A stretch of 64,000 nucleotides of DNA from Candidatus Nanosyncoccus sp. (GTDB lineage Bacteria; Patescibacteriota; Saccharimonadia; Saccharimonadales; Saccharimonadaceae). Location of the stretch: contig JAZMZP010000013.1 of NCBI GenBank assembly GCA_045586015.1, positions 2,374-66,373 on the forward strand, in the 5' to 3' direction. The translations under genes and the position numbers were made by a program. Shown in pieces: positions 10,874-44,899 of this stretch (positions are counted from its first letter, which is position 1; every line of letters begins with the position of its first letter). Under the pieces are notes generated by a model. The model made no database searches and was not told the DNA's origin. It saw only the letters and a program-made list of their open reading frames with translations.

Positions 10874-11032
10874 AAACAATAGTTTGCAATTTCGAAATAT
10901 GTGAAATCGCCCATATAAAAAATACAACTCTCCGGATTGTTGAGGAAACTGTAATTTCCGAAACAATCCGACGAGCGTTGTATTTTTTATCTTGGTGCGC
11001 ATTTCACCATTGAGAAATGCAAACTACTGTTT
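10874..11032. repeat. ~159-nt imperfect palindrome filling the convergent gap next to the rpsH stop
   Basis: Left arm aaacaatagtttgcaatttc...gtgaaatcgc...aaaaaatacaac...cggattgtt mirrors right arm aacaatccg...gttgtatttttt...gcgcatttcac...gaaatgcaaactactgttt. Confidence 0.7.
10917..10988. terminator. bidirectional intrinsic terminator (core of the long palindrome)
   Basis: aaaaaatacaac ... cggattgtt-loop-aacaatccg ... gttgtatttttt, with an A-run and T-run flanking nested stems. Confidence 0.6.
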
Positions 11033-26457: not shown

Positions 26458-27039
26458 ATGAATCGTCGGCTCGTTGAGGTTTTTCGTCTCAACCACAAGG
26501 AGATTCTAGATTGTCGGACAAAGGGTAGAGTTCTGTCCGATTATTTAGAGTGTGTGATGACTCAGGCTCTGAAGCGAATTAAAGAAAGAAAGGGTCTAGA
26601 ATGGGACAACTACACCCTCGCAACGGAAGAAGCAAGAATTCATTCTATGCTGAGGATAGGAGATTATATCCGAATAGACGAGGTCGACCAAGCCTTGATG
26701 GTTGCGAGAGTCTTTAAGGGTCCCATTCCACAGAAGAGCGAGGATGGGCGTACTGACTTTGGTTGGCTCGAGTTTAAGGAAGACAATCTTGGCTCGTTAT
26801 ACGAGAAGATTAAGCCGGTTACCGGATACGAGCTTAGCCTCATCCTTGATTCGTTAAAAGAGACGCTGCCGCCATCCCAATACGAAATAATTCGTCATTA
26901 TCTGTCGATGGCATGGAAGGCTCCGTATGCTTATACTGCCGCAGAATGCGAAAGTCTAATCGCGGCAATCACAAACATCCAGGAGATTCGGCTAATGCGT
27001 AATAAAATTTACGCAATAATGAGCGGAACTCTGTATTAA
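26458..27039 (+). CDS. hypothetical protein (193 aa)
   Basis: ORF with a weak SD (AAAGGA) and a terminator downstream. No recognisable motif. Confidence 0.65.
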   Translation: MNRRLVEVFRLNHKEILDCRTKGRVLSDYLECVMTQALKRIKERKGLEWDNYTLATEEARIHSMLRIGDYIRIDEVDQALMVARVFKGPIPQKSEDGRTDFGWLEFKEDNLGSLYEKIKPVTGYELSLILDSLKETLPPSQYEIIRHYLSMAWKAPYAYTAAECESLIAAITNIQEIRLMRNKIYAIMSGTLY

Positions 27040-27047
27040 CCTTTAGG

Positions 27048-27072
27048 CTCCCGACTAAGTCGGGGGCTTTTT
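27048..27072 (+). terminator. intrinsic terminator
   Basis: cccgac-taa-gtcggg (plus flanking pairs), then CTTTTT. Confidence 0.65.
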
Positions 27073-27073
27073 G

Positions 27074-27082
27074 TGTTATAAT
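27074..27082 (+). promoter_or_regulatory. extended -10 (TGTTATAAT) exactly 6 nt upstream of the murD ATG (leaderless architecture)
   Basis: tgttataat-attctt-ATGaaa. Confidence 0.6.
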
Positions 27083-34155: not shown

Positions 34156-34362
34156 ATGGCACAAGCAAAAAAGAAACAAGCTACCAAAACCGCGAAGAAA
34201 CAAACTCGCAGTACTAAAACCGCGCAAAGAAAAACTGGTTCTAAGCAAGCTCGTCGTACTCAATGCGACAATACTGAGCGTAACCACATCTATTTTGTTA
34301 CTGTTCTGGGTTTGATTGCCGCAATCTTGCTCTGCGCAAATGCCGCGATGATGATGGTCTAA
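34156..34362 (+). CDS. small (68 aa) tail-anchored protein: Lys/Arg-rich N-terminus + C-terminal TM helix
   Basis: Own promoter and an AGGAAG SD. MAQAKKKQATKTAKKQTRSTK...IYFVTVLGLIAAILLCANAAMMMV. Confidence 0.55.
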   Translation: MAQAKKKQATKTAKKQTRSTKTAQRKTGSKQARRTQCDNTERNHIYFVTVLGLIAAILLCANAAMMMV

Positions 34363-35588
34363 ACGATTATTCCGCCGCCGAGACAAATCTCGCCGTCGTA
34401 GAATACAGCGCTCTGCCCCGAAGCAGGGCGCTTTATTTTATTCTCAAAATGTAACCTTTCCCCATCGAAACTTGCCGGAATTAAAGGTGCTCGATGTCGT
34501 AAACGAACTAAAAGATTTCTAACCGGCAACTGTGAACTGACTTTCCGGGGGCTTGCGGAGGTTACGACCGAGCATGAGGGCGCTTTCCCCGTGACGACGG
34601 GCGAAAGCGACCCGTCCCCCAGGAAGTCAAGTTCAAGTTGCCGTAATAAGACGTCTTTTAGTCTTAGCTCATTAGTCCATAAATTCTCATCATTCAAATT
34701 TTTCGAAACATAAACGATGTTCTTTTTCAAATCTTTCTTTACGACATAGTACGGCATTCCATCATTTACTACGCCTTTTTCGCCATTTAAATAAAGCCCG
34801 TGCCTTTGCCCAATTGTATAAAATACGGCTCCCTCGTGATATCCTAAGACTTTTTCACTTTCAACTTCGCGAATCTCGCCCGGTTTTATATCAATATATT
34901 CCTTCAAAAAATCCTTCATCCCGACCTCCCCGACAAAACACACCCCCATTGACTCTTTTTTATAAGCGTTATGCAGCCCATTTTCTTTCGCGAGCTTCTT
35001 TACTTCCGGTTTTTTCATCTCTCCGACCGGAAAAAGCGTATGGGCTAAAGCCTCATCGCTAATTCGATAGAGAAAATACGTCTGATCTTTATTTTCATCG
35101 ATAGCCCTAAGCAAGACGGGGGTATCTGAAAATGTTTGATTCGGGACCGTAAGCTTGGCCGAACGGCCTTGAGTGTGTCCCGAATCAAACATTTTAGATA
35201 CCCTAGTTCTTGCATAGTGTCCAGTCGCGATAAAATCCGCCCCTTCTTCCATCGCTTTCTCATAAAACAGCTTAAATTTAATCTCTTGATTACACATAAT
35301 ATCCGGATTCGGCGTATTCCCTTTTTTAAATTCCGAAAGCATATACTCGACGACTTTCTGTCGGTATGCTTCCTCAAAATCCCACACAAAAAAATCAATC
35401 CCAAGTTTCACAGCCACTCTCTTCGCATCTGCCAAATCCTCTGCCCACGGGCACTTCATCCCCGGAAGATCCCTAGACCAGTTTTTCATATAAACTCCAA
35501 CTACTTTATAACCCTGTTCTTTTAAAAGTAGTGCTGCTACACTCGAATCTACGCCCCCACTCATCCCGACATAAACCGTCTTAACCAT
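34359..35588 (-). CDS. mnmA: tRNA 2-thiouridine(34) synthase MnmA, carrying two in-frame insertions
   Basis: PP-loop GMSGGVDSSVAA, NPDIMCN, ATGHYAR, KDQTYFLY, SGQSAVFYDGEICLGGGII. Confidence 0.93.
   Translation of the reverse strand: MVKTVYVGMSGGVDSSVAALLLKEQGYKVVGVYMKNWSRDLPGMKCPWAEDLADAKRVAVKLGIDFFVWDFEEAYRQKVVEYMLSEFKKGNTPNPDIMCNQEIKFKLFYEKAMEEGADFIATGHYARTRVSKMFDSGHTQGRSAKLTVPNQTFSDTPVLLRAIDENKDQTYFLYRISDEALAHTLFPVGEMKKPEVKKLAKENGLHNAYKKESMGVCFVGEVGMKDFLKEYIDIKPGEIREVESEKVLGYHEGAVFYTIGQRHGLYLNGEKGVVNDGMPYYVVKKDLKKNIVYVSKNLNDENLWTNELRLKDVLLRQLELDFLGDGSLSPVVTGKAPSCSVVTSASPRKVSSQLPVRNLLVRLRHRAPLIPASFDGERLHFENKIKRPASGQSAVFYDGEICLGGGIIV
34545..34622. repeat. G+C-rich palindromic element inserted in-frame in the mnmA 3' part (family member 1)
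   Basis: ccgggggcttgcggag...gggcgctttccccgt-gacg-acgggcgaaagcgaccc...gtcccccagg. Shares termini with 36481-36588. Encodes DGSLSPVVTGKAPSCSVVTSASP, absent from MnmA homologues as I recall them. Confidence 0.6.
35120..35203. repeat. 84-nt hairpin element (27/26-nt inverted arms) inserted in-frame in mnmA
   Basis: gggtatctgaaaatgtttgattcggga - 31-nt loop containing ggcc-gaac-ggcc - tcccgaatcaaacattttagataccc. Its 28 codons fall between the conserved GHYAR and KDQTYFLY motifs. Confidence 0.7.
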
Positions 35589-36852
35589 TTATTCGCTCGC
35601 TTTCTTTAGCTACAATCTCATTGATAATCTTCGCCGCTTCACGAATTTGAGCCTCGTCATTAGTTTCCCCAAGCGAAATTCTAAGAGAGCCCGTAATTTG
35701 GACATCCGTTAAACCAATCGCCTTTAAAACATGTGATTTTTCGCCCTTCGAAGCCGCACAAGCCGCCCCTGTTGCAACATATACCTCCGACCCCTCAAGA
35801 AGAAAGATTAATCTCTCTGCATCTATACCATTATAGCACAAAACAACGAAATTGTCAAGAGAGTGCTTACGGCTAATCAATTCATACCCCTGTAATTCAG
35901 CCAATAAAATCTTTTTCAAATTAGCATATTTTTTTCGATTTCCATTCAAATGTTCCTTTGCAAGCTCAACTGCCTTCGCGAACCCAATCACACCTGGCAC
36001 ATTTTCCGTCCCCGACCTTAACCCATTCTCTTGCCCCCCGCCAACCGTCAAAGGTTTTAATCTCGCCTCGTGTGAAACATATAACGCTCCAACCCCCTTC
36101 GGCCCATACACCTTCGCAGCGTTTAAAGTCAAAAGATCAATTCCCATCCTCGCAACATTAATATCAAGTAAATTTAAAGCCTGTGACGCATCGGAATGCA
36201 ATAATAATTGTGTTTTAATTCCCCGTTTCATCCGGTCTAACTTCACTTCGCGAATAATCCTCGCGACCTCCGCCAACGGCTGAATCGTCCCGAGCTCATT
36301 GTTTACGAGCGAAACCGAAATTAACTCCGTCTCATCAGTAATCTTAGACTTTAAATCATCCAAATCAATCAACCCGTTCGGAAGCACCTTAATACTCTCC
36401 CCCCCATATCTCTCCGCAACTCTCCGCACCGAATCATGCTCAGTCACAAGATAGAGCACGGTCGGAATCTGCTTATCGAAGGGGGTGCGGAGCGCGGCAG
36501 CGCGAGCTAAAGCGCGCGAGCCCCGTGGCAGACCGCCCCTTGGGACGCGGACGACCCGAAGGGTCGACGGGAGCGAGCGACGCGCCCCAAGAGAAGCAGA
36601 TTCGACCGTCCCTAAAGCTGTAAACGCTAAATTATTCGCTTCGGTCGCCCCAGCGGTAATGATGAGGTCAGAGGCTTTCGCTCCGATTGCATGCGCAATC
36701 GTCGCTTTTGCGTTCTCATAATCAGCCGCCACCTTCTTTGCCGGCAAATACGCCGCCGACGGATTAAAGAAATCATCAGAAAAATACGGCTTCATCGCCT
36801 CGAAAACTTTTTTCGATACCGGCGTCGCCGCCGCATGATCAAGATAAATCAT
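35581..36852 (-). CDS. cysteine desulfurase (NifS/IscS class V aminotransferase) carrying one in-frame G+C-rich insertion
   Basis: MIYLDHAAATP, HSDASQA, PLP-Lys context LNAAKVYGPKGVGALYV, C-terminal GAACAS. Overlaps the mnmA start by 8 nt (operon). Confidence 0.9.
   Translation of the reverse strand: MIYLDHAAATPVSKKVFEAMKPYFSDDFFNPSAAYLPAKKVAADYENAKATIAHAIGAKASDLIITAGATEANNLAFTALGTVESASLGARRSLPSTLRVVRVPRGGLPRGSRALARAAALRTPFDKQIPTVLYLVTEHDSVRRVAERYGGESIKVLPNGLIDLDDLKSKITDETELISVSLVNNELGTIQPLAEVARIIREVKLDRMKRGIKTQLLLHSDASQALNLLDINVARMGIDLLTLNAAKVYGPKGVGALYVSHEARLKPLTVGGGQENGLRSGTENVPGVIGFAKAVELAKEHLNGNRKKYANLKKILLAELQGYELISRKHSLDNFVVLCYNGIDAERLIFLLEGSEVYVATGAACAASKGEKSHVLKAIGLTDVQITGSLRISLGETNDEAQIREAAKIINEIVAKESERING
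36481..36588. repeat. 108-nt G+C-rich element inserted in-frame in the cysteine desulfurase gene (family member 2)
   Basis: gggggtgcggag...cgaccc-gaa-gggtcg...gacgggagcgagcgacgcgcccc. Its 36 codons encode GARRSLPSTLRVVRVPRGGLPRGSRALARAAALRTP between EANNLAF and VTEHDSV. Confidence 0.65.
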
Positions 36853-39285: not shown

Positions 39286-39294
39286 ATTATATCA
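39286..39294 (-). promoter_or_regulatory. extended -10 (TGATATAAT) whose TGA is the tatD stop codon
   Basis: Minus strand reads tgatataat-tagggt-ATGgaa. Confidence 0.5.
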
Positions 39295-40041
39295 CGAAAC
39301 GCTTGAAAAGTCAACCCCAAACAGGTCAAAAACGTTATCTGTAGTGGTTTTTGCCACCTCTTTAACAGATATCTCTAATTTTTCCGCTAACCACTTCGCA
39401 ATATCGGCAATATATGCCGGCTCATTAGTTTCGCCTCGATGCGGAGTCGGCGCCAAAAATGGCGCATCAGTCTCGAGGAGAATTCTCTCAAGTGGCGGGG
39501 TTGGCAAAGTTGAATAAGTCGCAAGCCCGTTCACCCCGACATAAAAATCAGTTTCATTCAAAATCCGCTTTAGGACCTTTTTGCTGTCCGTAAAAGAATG
39601 CACCACACCACGTACCTTCGGAAAATTGCTCACCACCGCAAAAAAGTCCGAGAAAGCTTCTCTGACGTGGAACGAAACCGGCAAACCATTATCAATCGCC
39701 ATCTGCAACATTTCCTCGAATAACTTAATCTGCGCCTCTCGGTCATAACCCTCATAATGATAATCTAGTCCCACTTCCCCGATAGCTACAAGTTTATCTC
39801 GCTCGGGGGCACGCCCCGAGTAAGACAAACTTGTAGCTTGTTCGGGGTGAATGCCATAGGTCCAATAAACATTATCGTGGGAATTAGCGAAATCGCGCGC
39901 AGCTAACGAATCTTCGTGCGATGTCCCGATGCAGATAATCTTCTCGACGCCTCTTTTTTTAGCTCGTTTAATCATCTCTTCGGCTTGTTTCGCCGTAAAA
40001 AACTCTCGGTCGTGGAGATGACAATGCGAATCAATTAGCAC
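39292..40041 (-). CDS. tatD: TatD family metal-dependent DNase/hydrolase
   Basis: [26 protein letters not shown]..., LLETDAPFL motifs. Overlaps the typA 3' end by 11 nt. Confidence 0.92.
   Translation of the reverse strand: MLIDSHCHLHDREFFTAKQAEEMIKRAKKRGVEKIICIGTSHEDSLAARDFANSHDNVYWTYGIHPEQATSLSYSGRAPERDKLVAIGEVGLDYHYEGYDREAQIKLFEEMLQMAIDNGLPVSFHVREAFSDFFAVVSNFPKVRGVVHSFTDSKKVLKRILNETDFYVGVNGLATYSTLPTPPLERILLETDAPFLAPTPHRGETNEPAYIADIAKWLAEKLEISVKEVAKTTTDNVFDLFGVDFSSVS
39784..39838. repeat. 55-nt nested hairpin inside the tatD coding sequence
   Basis: agctacaagttt-atctcg-ctcgggg-gcacg-ccccgag-taagac-aaacttgtagct, with a perfect 12-bp outer stem and a perfect 7-bp inner stem. Confidence 0.6.
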
Positions 40042-41848
40042 GATTTTCTCGCTTCCTTTTAATCGGATCGAGCTGACGCTTGCGAAGTCTTAAAGATTTT
40101 GGCGTCACTTCAAGCAATTCATCATCTAATAGAAAATCTAAACACTGCTCTAGCGATAACTGCGTATAAGGCGTCAATTGTATCGCACCATCTGACGCGT
40201 GTGTCCGCATATTCGTTAATTGCTTCTCGCGACAAATATTAATATCGATATCATCTTTTTTATTCGAAAGCCCGATAATCATACCGTGATAAACCGGCAC
40301 TCCAGGCGGAATAAACAAAATCCCGCGTGCTTGCGCCGCGTCTAATGCATAAGCCGTCGAAACCCCGTCCTCGAACGCGACCAAAGCTCCATTTCTTTCC
40401 GGCTTATATCTTTCTTCAACCGGCCGATATCCGCTCGGAATCGATGACATAATTACCGTGCCTTTCGTTTCGGTCAATAAATTATTCCGAAGCCCGATTA
40501 ATGCTGCCGTTGAAATTTCATACACAAATCGCGTCGTTCCGGAGCTCGTAATTTCTTGTGATGTTAACTCAGCTTTTCTGATGCCGAGTTCTTGGCTAAC
40601 TGCTCCGACAAATTCCGGCGCGACTTCAATCGTCAAATCTTCAATCGGCTCGCACTTCTCCCCGTCAATTTCTCGGTAAACTACTTCCGGTCGCCCGACT
40701 TCGAGTTCATAACCCTCGCGTCGCATCGTTTCGATTAAAACCGACAAATGTAGTTCGCCTCGTCCCGAAACTTTATAGCCTAACCCATCCGGTTCGATTT
40801 TCAACGCGATATTCGTTTCGAGCTCTCGCTCTAGTCTTTCCGCAATTTGGCGTGAAGTCGTAAAATCGCCTTCACGTCCCTTTAATGGCGAGGTGTTTGG
40901 CCCGATATAAATTGAAAGCGTCGGCGCTTCGAGCTCAATCCCCGGCAAAGCCTCCGGATTATCGCCAGTTGCAATCGTGTCGCCAATATTTGCTTCCGAA
41001 ACTCCCGTAATCGCGACAATATCCCCCGCAATCGCCTCCGGCACCTCTTCCTTTCCTAGTCCTTTGTAAATAAATAAATTATCAATCTTACTGTTTTTTA
41101 TTTCATTATTATGTAAAATCTTTACACTTTGGTTTTTCTTTAATTTACCACTAAAAATTTTACCAATACAATACTTGCCAAGATAATTATCGCCCGCGAG
41201 CGCCGCAACGAGAAGTTGCGCCGACTCTGCGTCGGAATCAACCGAAGGCGCCGGAATATCGTTAATAATTGATTCAAAAATTACGTGTAAATCATCATCA
41301 AGCTCGGTCGTTTTTCCCGCTCGGCCTTCCCTAGCGATTGCATAATAAACCGGATAGAACAATTGTGACTCATCCGTTGCGAGTTCTAAAAACAAACTTT
41401 CAATTTCTGATAAAACTTCCGGGATGCGTGCCGCCGGTTTATCAATTTTATTAATCACTACCACCGGTTTTAATCCTAAACTGAGAGCCTTCGATAAAAC
41501 GAACTTCGTTTGTGGCATCGGCCCTTCCTGCGCATCGACGATAAGTAGAACTCCATCCGCCATATTCAAAGTCCGCTCGACCTCGCCCGAAAAATCCGCG
41601 TGTCCCGGCGTATCGATAATATTAATCTTATAACCATCATAATAAACACAAGTTTGCTTTGCCGTAATCGTAATACCTCGCTCGTGTTCCTGATCCATCG
41701 AATCCATAATTAAAGTCTGATTCATTTCAGCTTGATTATCGCGAAAAGTACGCGACTGCTTCAAAAGCCCATCGACTAAAGTCGTTTTTCCGTGATCAAC
41801 GTGTGCAATAATCGCCACGTTCCGAATTAAATCTTTGTTTGAAACCAT
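40031..41848 (-). CDS. typA: translational GTPase TypA/BipA
   Basis: [31 protein letters not shown]; 605 aa. Confidence 0.93.
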
Positions 41849-43615: not shown

Positions 43616-44161
43616 ATGAGCAAACAAACTGAATGGGACGAGTATTTTATGAACATCGCCGAAGCAGTCGCGGCGAAGTCAAAAGATCCCTCGAGTAAAA
43701 TGGGCTGCGTGATTGTCGACAAAAATAAACGCGTAGTTTCGTTAGGTTATAACGGCTTAATCCAAGGCGCCGACGAATCAAAAATGACTCTTAGTGAGCG
43801 CCCGATGAAATATTATTTCGCCATTCATTCCGAAATGAACGCCTTAATTTTCGCTCATCAAGATTTAACCGGTTGCACGATTTACAATCGTGTTGCAACT
43901 TGCGAAAACTGTTTGAAATATTGTCTCCAAGCCGGCATCAAACGCTTTGTCTACCGAGATTTACGCGTCCATTCCCATTCAACCGACCCAAAAAAATCGA
44001 TGACCAATATCGATACTGACGAAGCCGTCGTGCGTTTGCTTGTTTCGATGCCTGAAGTCGAAACCCTGAATCTTACAAACGGTAAAACCTATGTCGAAGA
44101 CATTTTAGATTCTTACGAAAAAGAATCAGAAGAATACAACCGCCTAAAAAGATGGATCTAA
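43616..44161 (+). CDS. dCMP/CMP deaminase family (ComEB-like) zinc enzyme
   Basis: WDEYFMNIA..., HSEMNAL (HxE) and CENCLKY (CxxC) zinc ligands. Confidence 0.85.
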   Translation: MSKQTEWDEYFMNIAEAVAAKSKDPSSKMGCVIVDKNKRVVSLGYNGLIQGADESKMTLSERPMKYYFAIHSEMNALIFAHQDLTGCTIYNRVATCENCLKYCLQAGIKRFVYRDLRVHSHSTDPKKSMTNIDTDEAVVRLLVSMPEVETLNLTNGKTYVEDILDSYEKESEEYNRLKRWI

Positions 44162-44164
44162 TAT

Positions 44165-44247
44165 GGACGGGTGGCGCAAATAGGGGGACCCCCAAAATAT
44201 TTGCGTAGGCAAAATTTTGGGGGAAAATTTTTTGGAAGGACCCGTCC
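44165..44247. other. 83-nt structured element between convergent genes, with mutually exclusive hairpins
   Basis: Outer pair ggacgggt/acccgtcc. Inner alternatives are cgcaaata/tatttgcg versus cccccaaaat/attttggggg. A T-run lies at 44228-44233. Confidence 0.5.
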
Positions 44248-44251
44248 AGAA

Positions 44252-44899
44252 TTACCATTCGATTGGTTTTAGGTTGTTTTTTTCCAAGAAAGCATTGGTT
44301 TTAGAAAATGGTTTACTCCCAAAAAACCCAGCGTAAGCCGAAAGTGGCGACGGATGCGCTGATTCTAGAATTAAATGCTTCGAACTATCAATGAGTGATT
44401 TTTTATTTCTCGCGTCACGCCCCCAAAGAATAAACACTAAATGCGGACGCGTTTCATTTAAATATTTAATTACTTCTGTCGTAAAAATCTCCCAACCTCT
44501 TCCGCTATGCGATTTTGGTTTGTGTGCTTCTACTGTCAAAACTGTATTTAATAATAAAACTCCTTGTTTTTGCCATTTTCTTAAACTTCCCCGCGGATTT
44601 TCGTGATGCCCGATATCCGAATCGATTTCCTTATATATATTAATTAAGGACGGTGGTATTGGTTCCGAATTTGGCACCGAAAATGCGAGCCCCATCGCCG
44701 CTCCCGGCGTATGATAAGGATCTTGCCCCAAAATTACTACCTTTACTTCGTTTAAATCAGTCGTAAAAGCCGAAAAAACTAACTCTTTTTTAGGAAAAAT
44801 CGTTTTTGTTTCATATTCAGTGTGCAGGAACTCGGACAATTCTTTAAAATATGGCTTCTTGAACTCGCTTTTTAAAAACGGCTTCCAACTCTCATGCAT
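44252..44899 (-). CDS. ung: uracil-DNA glycosylase, family 1
   Basis: GQDPYH and HPSPLS motifs. Start at MHESWKPFL. Confidence 0.93.
   Translation of the reverse strand: MHESWKPFLKSEFKKPYFKELSEFLHTEYETKTIFPKKELVFSAFTTDLNEVKVVILGQDPYHTPGAAMGLAFSVPNSEPIPPSLINIYKEIDSDIGHHENPRGSLRKWQKQGVLLLNTVLTVEAHKPKSHSGRGWEIFTTEVIKYLNETRPHLVFILWGRDARNKKSLIDSSKHLILESAHPSPLSAYAGFFGSKPFSKTNAFLEKNNLKPIEW

Follow-up and report, generated by a model that had tools for sequence, protein, structure and literature searches.

We analysed a 64,000-nucleotide (nt) stretch of DNA from Candidatus Nanosyncoccus sp. (GCA_045586015.1, contig JAZMZP010000013.1, positions 2,374 to 66,373 of the forward strand), hereafter called the window, in which a long palindromic hairpin lies inside mnmA, the gene encoding tRNA 2-thiouridine synthase. 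The host open reading frame (ORF) at 34359..35588 on the minus strand encodes 409 amino acids (aa), was identified as MnmA by Pfam and retains all three MnmA domains. On the plus strand, positions 35120-35203 read gggtatctgaaaatgtttgattcggga / ccgtaagcttggccgaacggccttgagtgtg / tcccgaatcaaacattttagataccc, i.e. a 27-nt arm (35120-35146), a 31-nt centre and a 26-nt arm (35178-35203) that is complementary to the first except for one bulged base. An inner hairpin GGCC-GAAC-GGCC (plus-strand reading) occupies 35157-35168 within the centre. Coordinates, arms, loop and the one-base defect were all as described in an initial annotation made from the sequence alone. The sense-strand RNA of the 84-nt hairpin folded at -58.1 kcal/mol, a stability that no sequence among 200 shuffles reached (z = -10.85). 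The 84 nt correspond to 28 in-frame codons (VSKMFDSGHTQGRSAKLTVPNQTFSDTP) between GHYAR and DENKDQTYF of MnmA. The initial annotation had recommended a check for an assembly artefact, and this could be excluded because an independent assembly from Logan (SRR27608068, L299) has the same element at 100% identity, with a few substitutions in the flanks only. We refer to this hairpin and its relatives as family C; its parts and its host gene are as follows, L100 being the nearest relative with available DNA.

34359..35588, minus strand: host gene mnmA (tRNA 2-thiouridine synthase), 409 aa, frame intact, with hot-spot 1 after GHYAR and hot-spot 2 before VRLRHR (Pfam, orthologue alignment)
35120..35203, minus strand: full family-C palindromic hairpin in mnmA (fold; indel relative to L100; identical in L299)
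35145..35179, minus strand: 35-nt near-invariant apical core, on the sense strand GAC-ACACTCAA-GGCC-GTTC-GGCC-AAGCTTACG-GTC (91-97% identity, 131 copies)
35157..35168, minus strand: inner 4-bp hairpin of the family-C core, GGCC GTTC GGCC, with GGGC/GCCC covariation in other copies (copy comparison)
35120..35144, minus strand: sense-strand 3' arm (the plus-strand left arm), copy-specific, holding the single bulge (fold; copy comparison)
35180..35203, minus strand: sense-strand 5' arm, copy-specific, its inner 13 nt resembling the arms of the L083/L086/L090 sub-family (copy comparison)

The best protein matches were MnmA proteins of Candidatus Saccharibacteria (TM7, Candidate Phyla Radiation, CPR), mostly from rumen and gut metagenome-assembled genomes named Ca. 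Nanosyncoccus. Orthologues at 70-88% identity were 347 to 486 aa long, and in an alignment of 33 MnmA sequences all length variation was located at two sites, site 1 after GHYAR and site 2 before V(R)LRHR. Insert-free Saccharibacteria orthologues had 10 residues at site 1, between GHYAR and DENKDQTYF. The same insert peptides occurred at different sites depending on the species (e.g. GDGSLAPVVTGLAPSSSVVTSGSP, which the window has at site 2 but some species have at site 1), which is the signature of a mobile sequence and not of a lineage-specific loop. Most site-1 inserts of other species were at the DNA level also long hairpins with GC-rich centres. Despite the variable inserts at the two hot-spots, all 80 of the 80 mnmA loci retrieved were in one stop-free frame. 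The nearest relative, L100 (encoding P0002), shared more than 13 kb of synteny with the window at about 80% nt identity, and exactly 78 nt (26 codons) were missing from its mnmA at site 1 relative to the window. The proposed insertion of 84 nt thus needs to be corrected in size: the 28 in-frame codons stand, and the net insertion relative to L100 is 78 nt or 26 codons. Only one other large indel separated the two over 13 kb, a GC-rich palindromic block of about 143 nt in a cysteine desulfurase gene.

Copies of the core were compared by means of an exact 29-mer (GGGACACACTCAAGGCCGTTCGGCCAAGC), a degenerate core pattern and blastn-short. Of the 17 genome contigs with an exact match to the 29-mer, 14 belonged to Saccharibacteria and 3 to isolates of Bifidobacterium. 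With the degenerate pattern more than 118 loci were found among the matches listed, and the unique copies numbered at least 131, with several copies per genome (e.g. at least 7 in B. rousetti). Hosts of the core among the matches listed were Saccharibacteria or Bifidobacterium (at least 20 species), bar a few bins labelled otherwise. The initial annotation had suggested a search for the 27-nt arm elsewhere; a scan of the window revealed no second copy of the arm, and it was the core that proved to be repeated in other genomes. A scan of the window against Rfam 15 gave no match at gathering thresholds, and under permissive settings only generic hairpin noise resembling miRNA precursors, below threshold. 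As for the otherwise labelled bins, CAVDHS (L008/L107, 'Bulleidia sp.'), CAVEVP (L141/L254, 'Clostridiales bacterium'), CAVDXX (L102/L118/L170) and CAVEVN (L029/L117/L138) contained contigs of Saccharibacteria type, e.g. with an mnmA 64-72% identical to that of the window and a GC content of about 0.44-0.47. The Bulleidia, Clostridiales and 'bacterium' bins with the core are probably mis-binned or mislabelled Saccharibacteria.

In 131 of 131 unique copies the core capped a long stem. Its near-invariant 35 nt read GAC-ACRCTCAA-GGSC-GYTC-GSCC-RAGCYTAYG-GTC, and the inner 4-bp helix covaried between GGCC/GGCC and GGGC/GCCC across copies. The arms followed a different pattern of conservation: mean pairwise identity across copies was 0.91-0.97 for the cores versus 0.40-0.44 for the arms, and Watson-Crick pairing of the 5' arm was 0.80-0.90 with its own 3' arm versus 0.39-0.41 with the arms of other copies. 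All four pair types were found at almost every stem position across family-C copies. Arm composition was AT-rich in Saccharibacteria and GC-rich in Bifidobacterium, where stems were typically 28-30 bp long, their consensus was weak and the stem foot bore short conserved motifs. The median hairpin was 80 nt long in Saccharibacteria, against 87 nt in Bifidobacterium. Arm sub-families could still be recognised, such as CCGAA-N4-TTTT and GGGATTTCCTGTTC, and a single bulge recurred in 17 copies, at 16-20 bp from the core.

In every case with an insert-free orthologue for comparison, the net insertion equalled the whole hairpin minus 1-3 codons. Hairpin and net insert measured 84 nt and 26 aa, 84 nt and 27 aa, 80 nt and 24 aa, 91 nt and 27 aa, and 77 nt and 24 aa, which amounts to a consistent shortfall of 3-10 nt. 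In addition, we found several pairs of copies with arms that were 82-100% identical in outer flanks at chance similarity, among them pairs located in two different proteins (L035/L177) or in different Bifidobacterium species (L120/L140 and L088/L104). Because of the sizes of the net insertions, the recurrence of arms at unrelated loci and the existence of sub-families, the arms can be said to travel with the core and to diverge quickly. The window itself contains both site states of family C, since besides the filled site in mnmA its BipA/TypA gene (40031..41848, minus strand) is at 40037-41260 an empty-site orthologue of the family-C insertion in L215, with 83% aa identity and a 22-aa gap.

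The genomic context of the copies was different in the two lineages. In Bifidobacterium 55 of 58 copies had no spanning ORF with high GC content at third codon positions and were thus intergenic, with examples located just 3' of genes. About 38 of 72 Saccharibacteria copies lay inside ORFs of at least 120 aa, and the remaining ones were found in true intergenic spacers, close up against the ends or starts of genes. Proteins hosting family C included MnmA, TopA-like, GatB-like, aminotransferase and BipA/TypA proteins. Genic copies occurred in both orientations. All three sense frames were used (GHTQGRSAK, DTLKAVRPSLRS and THSRPFGQAYG), and antisense genic copies used the one stop-free frame, D[RH]KLGR[TA][AP]LSVS. 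Predicted peptides that would span the junctions of elements include MFDSGHTQGRSAK and GDGSLAPVVTG. We checked the Saccharibacteria copies without an ORF for genes split by out-of-frame insertion and saw none. Among stem mismatches of the transition type, 26 were G.T and 33 were A.C. These symmetric mismatches and the use of both orientations therefore point to a palindrome at the DNA level, hairpin or cruciform, that would decay neutrally after insertion, rather than to a selected mRNA structure. Judged from the mismatches, the two orientations and the intergenic copies, there is no sign of mnmA-specific regulatory selection on an RNA hairpin.

Many of the intergenic Saccharibacteria copies carried an extended -10-like motif, TGnTATAAT, after or within the 3' arm (e.g. 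L085, L087, L156, L162, L168, L174, L176, L212 and L214, counting the 3' arm and the next ~20 nt), sometimes with the complement in the 5' arm. The motifs may act as promoters that face outward, or the element may insert preferentially into promoter regions.

An AlphaFold2 model of this MnmA, calculated from the 33-sequence alignment, had a mean predicted local distance difference test (pLDDT) score of 68.9, and the MnmA core fold was predicted with reasonable confidence. Both inserts were the segments of lowest confidence (residues 132-154 and 319-355, pLDDT below 50), and each was placed between the strands of a beta-hairpin (E127-130/E157-160 and E304-315/E359-362). The solved MnmA structures 2HMA and 9HLV have a gap across site 1, at their own 'EDG' turn. 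Because of the low-pLDDT beta-hairpin tips and the gap in the solved structures, the insert is, according to the model, a tolerated surface loop. The presence of two hot-spots in mnmA is best explained by selection for permissive positions, and may also involve targeting of pre-existing palindromes.

Family C is not the only palindromic insert in this region of the window. The second hot-spot of mnmA carries a hairpin of another family, here called family A, and the cysteine desulfurase gene carries the block that is missing from L100.

34525..34642, minus strand: second in-frame hairpin of mnmA, family A, at hot-spot 2, with a GC-rich multi-hairpin core of ~75 nt and unique arms (fold z = -6.1; also in L100)
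36474..36616, minus strand: composite GC-rich (~69%) palindromic insert of ~143 nt, in-frame, in the cysteine desulfurase gene (ARRSLPSTLRVVRVPRGGLPRGSRALARAAALRTP), absent from L100 (alignment with L100)

The core pattern of family A was found at 83 loci, all from Saccharibacteria bar one likely chance match, with several per genome. Inside ORFs of at least 150 aa were 70 of its 81 unique copies (86%). They were concentrated in two frames, one sense frame in 40 copies (GDGSLAPVVTGLAPSSSVVTSGSPR) and one antisense frame in 23 copies (RGLPEVTTEDEGASPVTTGASDPS), and both encode peptides rich in Gly, Ser, Pro and Thr. The cysteine desulfurase insert is built of at least two modules that are found separately at other Saccharibacteria loci and whose cores differ from that of family C. 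At about 6150-6290 of L102, a complete family-A hairpin lies directly next to the 5' half of a family-C core (CGGACACGCTCAAGGCCGC), a junction suggestive of one family having inserted into another in a nested or truncating manner.

Taken as a whole, the observations are probably best explained by a mobile palindromic element that is inserted in-frame into mnmA and read through there. We propose that the hairpin in mnmA represents a copy of a mobile DNA element that is palindromic, small (~80-90 nt) and non-autonomous. Its plan comprises a 35-nt near-invariant apical core, with a 4-bp hairpin and two conserved internal-loop strands, set on two arms of 20-30 nt that are free to vary in sequence as long as they stay complementary to one another, and the entire hairpin moves as one unit. 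The conserved core may be the part that is recognised, probably as hairpin or cruciform DNA, by a putative trans-acting mobilising enzyme; a conserved structured apex, a freely varying paired stem and the lack of target-site duplications would fit such recognition of a folded strand or cruciform better than a DDE transposase binding to terminal inverted repeats. In mnmA the landing site would correspond to codons of the beta-hairpin tip in the N-terminal catalytic domain, with a net gain of 26 codons. The ribosome would read through the copy because it is a multiple of three in length and stop-free in the frame used, and MnmA would then bear a disordered surface loop of 26-28 residues (SGHTQGRSAK) while the gene stayed functional, so that the insertion may be nearly neutral for MnmA. 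Selection would act as a filter in that, inside genes, copies persist only if they are in-frame, stop-free and located in permissive loops, and because selection filters the copies in this way, many element families would be found at the same two mnmA sites across species. The presence of the core in both Saccharibacteria and Bifidobacterium may reflect horizontal transfer, but could also be due to a strong constraint on the core rather than to recent transfer.

Several observations count against this interpretation. L001 and the window have copies at the identical mnmA position with cores that are ~92% identical and arms that differ at about half of the positions, whereas L100, which is closer to the window than L001, is empty there; independent insertions, replacement or loss are therefore required. 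No transposase lay between or beside the paired copies examined (L088, L081), and no autonomous parent element was found between them. At the base of the hairpin, direct repeats of 2-5 nt were no more common than in permuted controls, and no target motif was found. Family-C copies were also not found in viral contigs or in plasmid or phage collections; the sole 'phage' match, L298 (MT837054.1, 'UNVERIFIED: Bacteriophage sp.'), was a Bifidobacterium-like chromosomal fragment (trxB, murJ) with a typical family-C copy at positions 40-130, 3' of trxB. Filled and empty orthologues were only ~80% identical, and exact junctions were unreadable in six pairs. The translation of the mnmA copy is likely on the basis of frame conservation rather than of proteomics, and the distribution over two lineages describes a sample among the matches listed, not a census.

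One other explanation is that the insert is an ordinary lineage-specific loop that had grown by small indels, with a palindrome that is accidental or that arose by local quasi-palindrome correction. Sites 1 and 2 of MnmA do vary in length in many species, and orthologous copies (L086/L093 and L083/L097) showed in-situ compensatory changes in their arms. The occurrence of a 35-39-nt core at more than 118 unrelated loci among the matches listed, in various genes and intergenic regions, in both orientations and in a second phylum, speaks against it, as do the identical whole hairpins in unrelated flanks and the clean 78-nt indel relative to L100. Such a loop is effectively refuted by these dispersal data, and we regard its probability as negligible. 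Another explanation starts from the RNA, with removal of the hairpin (e.g. by RNase III-type cleavage and re-ligation) or ribosomal hopping, in analogy to the byp elements and GC clusters of yeast mitochondria. A long stem is a plausible endonuclease substrate, and the GC-rich palindromic cores of this AT-richer genome may be likened to mitochondrial GC clusters. However, every genic copy was in an open frame, with antisense copies in their single stop-free frame, no frame-broken genes were seen among the copies without an ORF, and family A was concentrated in two frames encoding linker-like peptides. An interruption of the frame, as in bypassed or spliced elements, was thus not observed in any genic copy, nor in any of the 80 mnmA genes. 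Removal or bypass is very unlikely because neither would constrain length or stop codons.

The hairpin might alternatively be a cis-regulatory mRNA structure that tunes translation or decay in mnmA and other genes, with mobility being secondary. This would agree with the high stability of the hairpin and with arms that stay complementary despite sequence turnover, and intergenic copies hug the 3' ends of genes, possibly serving termination or stabilisation, several of them followed by the -10-like TGnTATAAT. If the helix were selected as RNA on one strand, G.U pairs should be favoured, whereas G.T mismatches (26) did not outnumber A.C mismatches (33); moreover, genic copies had both orientations, L100 does without the element and the element is specific to no gene. 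We therefore consider a regulatory structure improbable. It is also conceivable that the core alone is mobile and that the arms are made anew whenever the core inserts, by inverted duplication of flanking target sequence through fold-back or template switching. The base composition of the arms matches that of the host, the net insertion falls 3-10 nt short of the hairpin length, and the outermost arm in the window, GGGTATCTAAA, can be aligned with TTGATGGTAAA of L100. Yet the net insertion approximates the whole hairpin and not the core plus one arm, and arm sub-families exist, with arms 82-100% identical at unrelated loci, which leaves little room for such a mechanism. The mobile, read-through palindrome remains our favoured explanation, and a more specific version of it can be put forward tentatively. 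In this version the element belongs to an undescribed class and is organised 'inside-out' compared to MITEs (miniature transposable elements with inverted repeats): putative trans-acting machinery would recognise the invariant core on hairpin or cruciform DNA without target duplication, leaving the stem free; the family would recently have crossed between Bifidobacterium (Actinomycetota) and gut or rumen Saccharibacteria; and the Saccharibacteria copies would have adapted to coding sequence via linker-like peptides. We consider this combination possible, albeit rather less likely than not to hold in full.

The initial annotation had called the hairpin MITE-like and in-frame. Dispersal, presence or absence between relatives, recurrence of the whole hairpin and the lack of an adjoining transposase agree with this, while target-site duplications and conserved terminal inverted repeats, which belong to the same concept, did not materialise. 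MITEs such as Correia/NEMIS, ERIC and Nezha are likewise small, non-autonomous and multi-copy, have inverted-repeat termini and hairpin transcripts, and are occasionally intragenic and in-frame (PMC10969869). Family-C copies were 80-90 nt long, within the size of classical MITEs (under about 300 bp), and like these they were dispersed and multi-copy and had no transposase beside the paired copies (L088, L081). MITEs are, however, defined by target-site duplications and by conserved terminal inverted repeats of a parent insertion sequence, whereas in family C it is the inverted repeats that show the lowest conservation: arms were 40-44% identical, conservation was central, no parent insertion sequence was seen, and direct repeats stayed at the level of the permuted controls. 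With no target-site duplication and with the arms as the variable part, family C therefore behaves more like the Rickettsia palindromic elements (RPEs) than like a DDE-type MITE.

RPEs, reportedly described by Ogata et al. in 2000, are ~100-150 bp long and conserved along their length. They are the closest analogue, likened here by behaviour and not by sequence: like family C they are palindromic and non-coding, lie in-frame in housekeeping ORFs and also in intergenic regions, are compatible with protein surfaces and lack a known mobilising enzyme. Family C shares with them a stable hairpin palindrome and in-frame insertion into many unrelated, intact housekeeping ORFs; a position in a fold-compatible surface loop was seen for MnmA alone, from the model and the solved structures. 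In contrast to RPEs, family C conserves the 35-nt apical core alone and has hypervariable yet complementary arms. Its host also differs (Saccharibacteria/CPR), and the core is common to Bifidobacterium, where the copies are intergenic. RPEs have been described as short palindromic repeats found in-frame in many metabolic genes of a bacterium with a reduced genome (PMC10969869).

Repetitive extragenic palindromic sequences (REPs), the bacterial interspersed mosaic elements (BIMEs) composed of them and palindrome-associated elements derived from IS200/IS605 (PATEs) are similar in being hairpin DNA repeats without target-site duplications that are presumably acted on as folded single strands; they lie between genes at gene 3' ends, as family C does in Bifidobacterium. 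REPs are 20-40 bp long and extragenic, and the foot of their stem carries a conserved GTAG/CGTC head (PMC3733652). Family C is longer (80-90 nt), half of its Saccharibacteria copies are intragenic, there is no GTAG/CGTC at the stem foot, and its conserved part is the loop and not a stem-foot head. Some Bifidobacterium copies formed close pairs 130-260 nt apart, inverted or direct, with a BIME-like look (L092 6475-6635, L104 3087-3314, L155 6828-7117). Fungal mitochondrial GC clusters, double-hairpin elements and byp elements may be a further analogue, being palindromic modules rich in GC that spread through a compact genome richer in AT, coding genes included. Byp elements disrupt the frame and ribosomes hop over them, whereas the frame is always kept in family C. 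In the literature we found no description of such elements for Saccharibacteria/Patescibacteria or Bifidobacterium. The mnmA hairpin is one visible copy of a much larger phenomenon, which appears not to have been described before. While RPE-like in-frame palindromes are of a known kind, the architecture of a conserved core with variable arms and the distribution over two phyla are unusual.

In-frame palindromic repeats in essential genes have so far largely been treated as a peculiarity of Rickettsia (PMC10969869). Their large-scale occurrence in Saccharibacteria suggests that they are a recurrent outcome in reduced, host-dependent genomes with little intergenic DNA; there are several element families with up to 86% of copies intragenic, and two adjacent genes of the window hold three elements. 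Protein lengths and alignments of CPR bacteria are inflated by the inserts (347 to 486 aa for MnmA), and pipelines for homology and structure will see spurious 'disordered regions'. The conserved-core, variable-arm plan together with the lack of target duplications points to mobilisation by an uncharacterised mechanism. That both lineages have a near-identical core is a lead for DNA exchange between bifidobacteria and gut Saccharibacteria, and possibly for a host relationship between them. Saccharibacteria live as epibionts on Actinobacteria. If the element did cross recently, this would fit such a lifestyle, and the shared element could serve as a marker of a host-epibiont pair.

Elsewhere in the window one more coding hairpin was found.

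39784-39838, minus strand: hairpin with 25-nt arms in the coding sequence of a TatD-like ORF (39292..40041) (fold z = -6.9)

This hairpin matched no dispersed family, and the protein has the same length as in L100, which also has the hairpin. Strong intergenic or gene-end hairpins were further present at 10910-10995, about 26981-27080 and about 44161-44260 (local fold z of -4 to -5). These are probably ordinary terminators that are unrelated to the element families.

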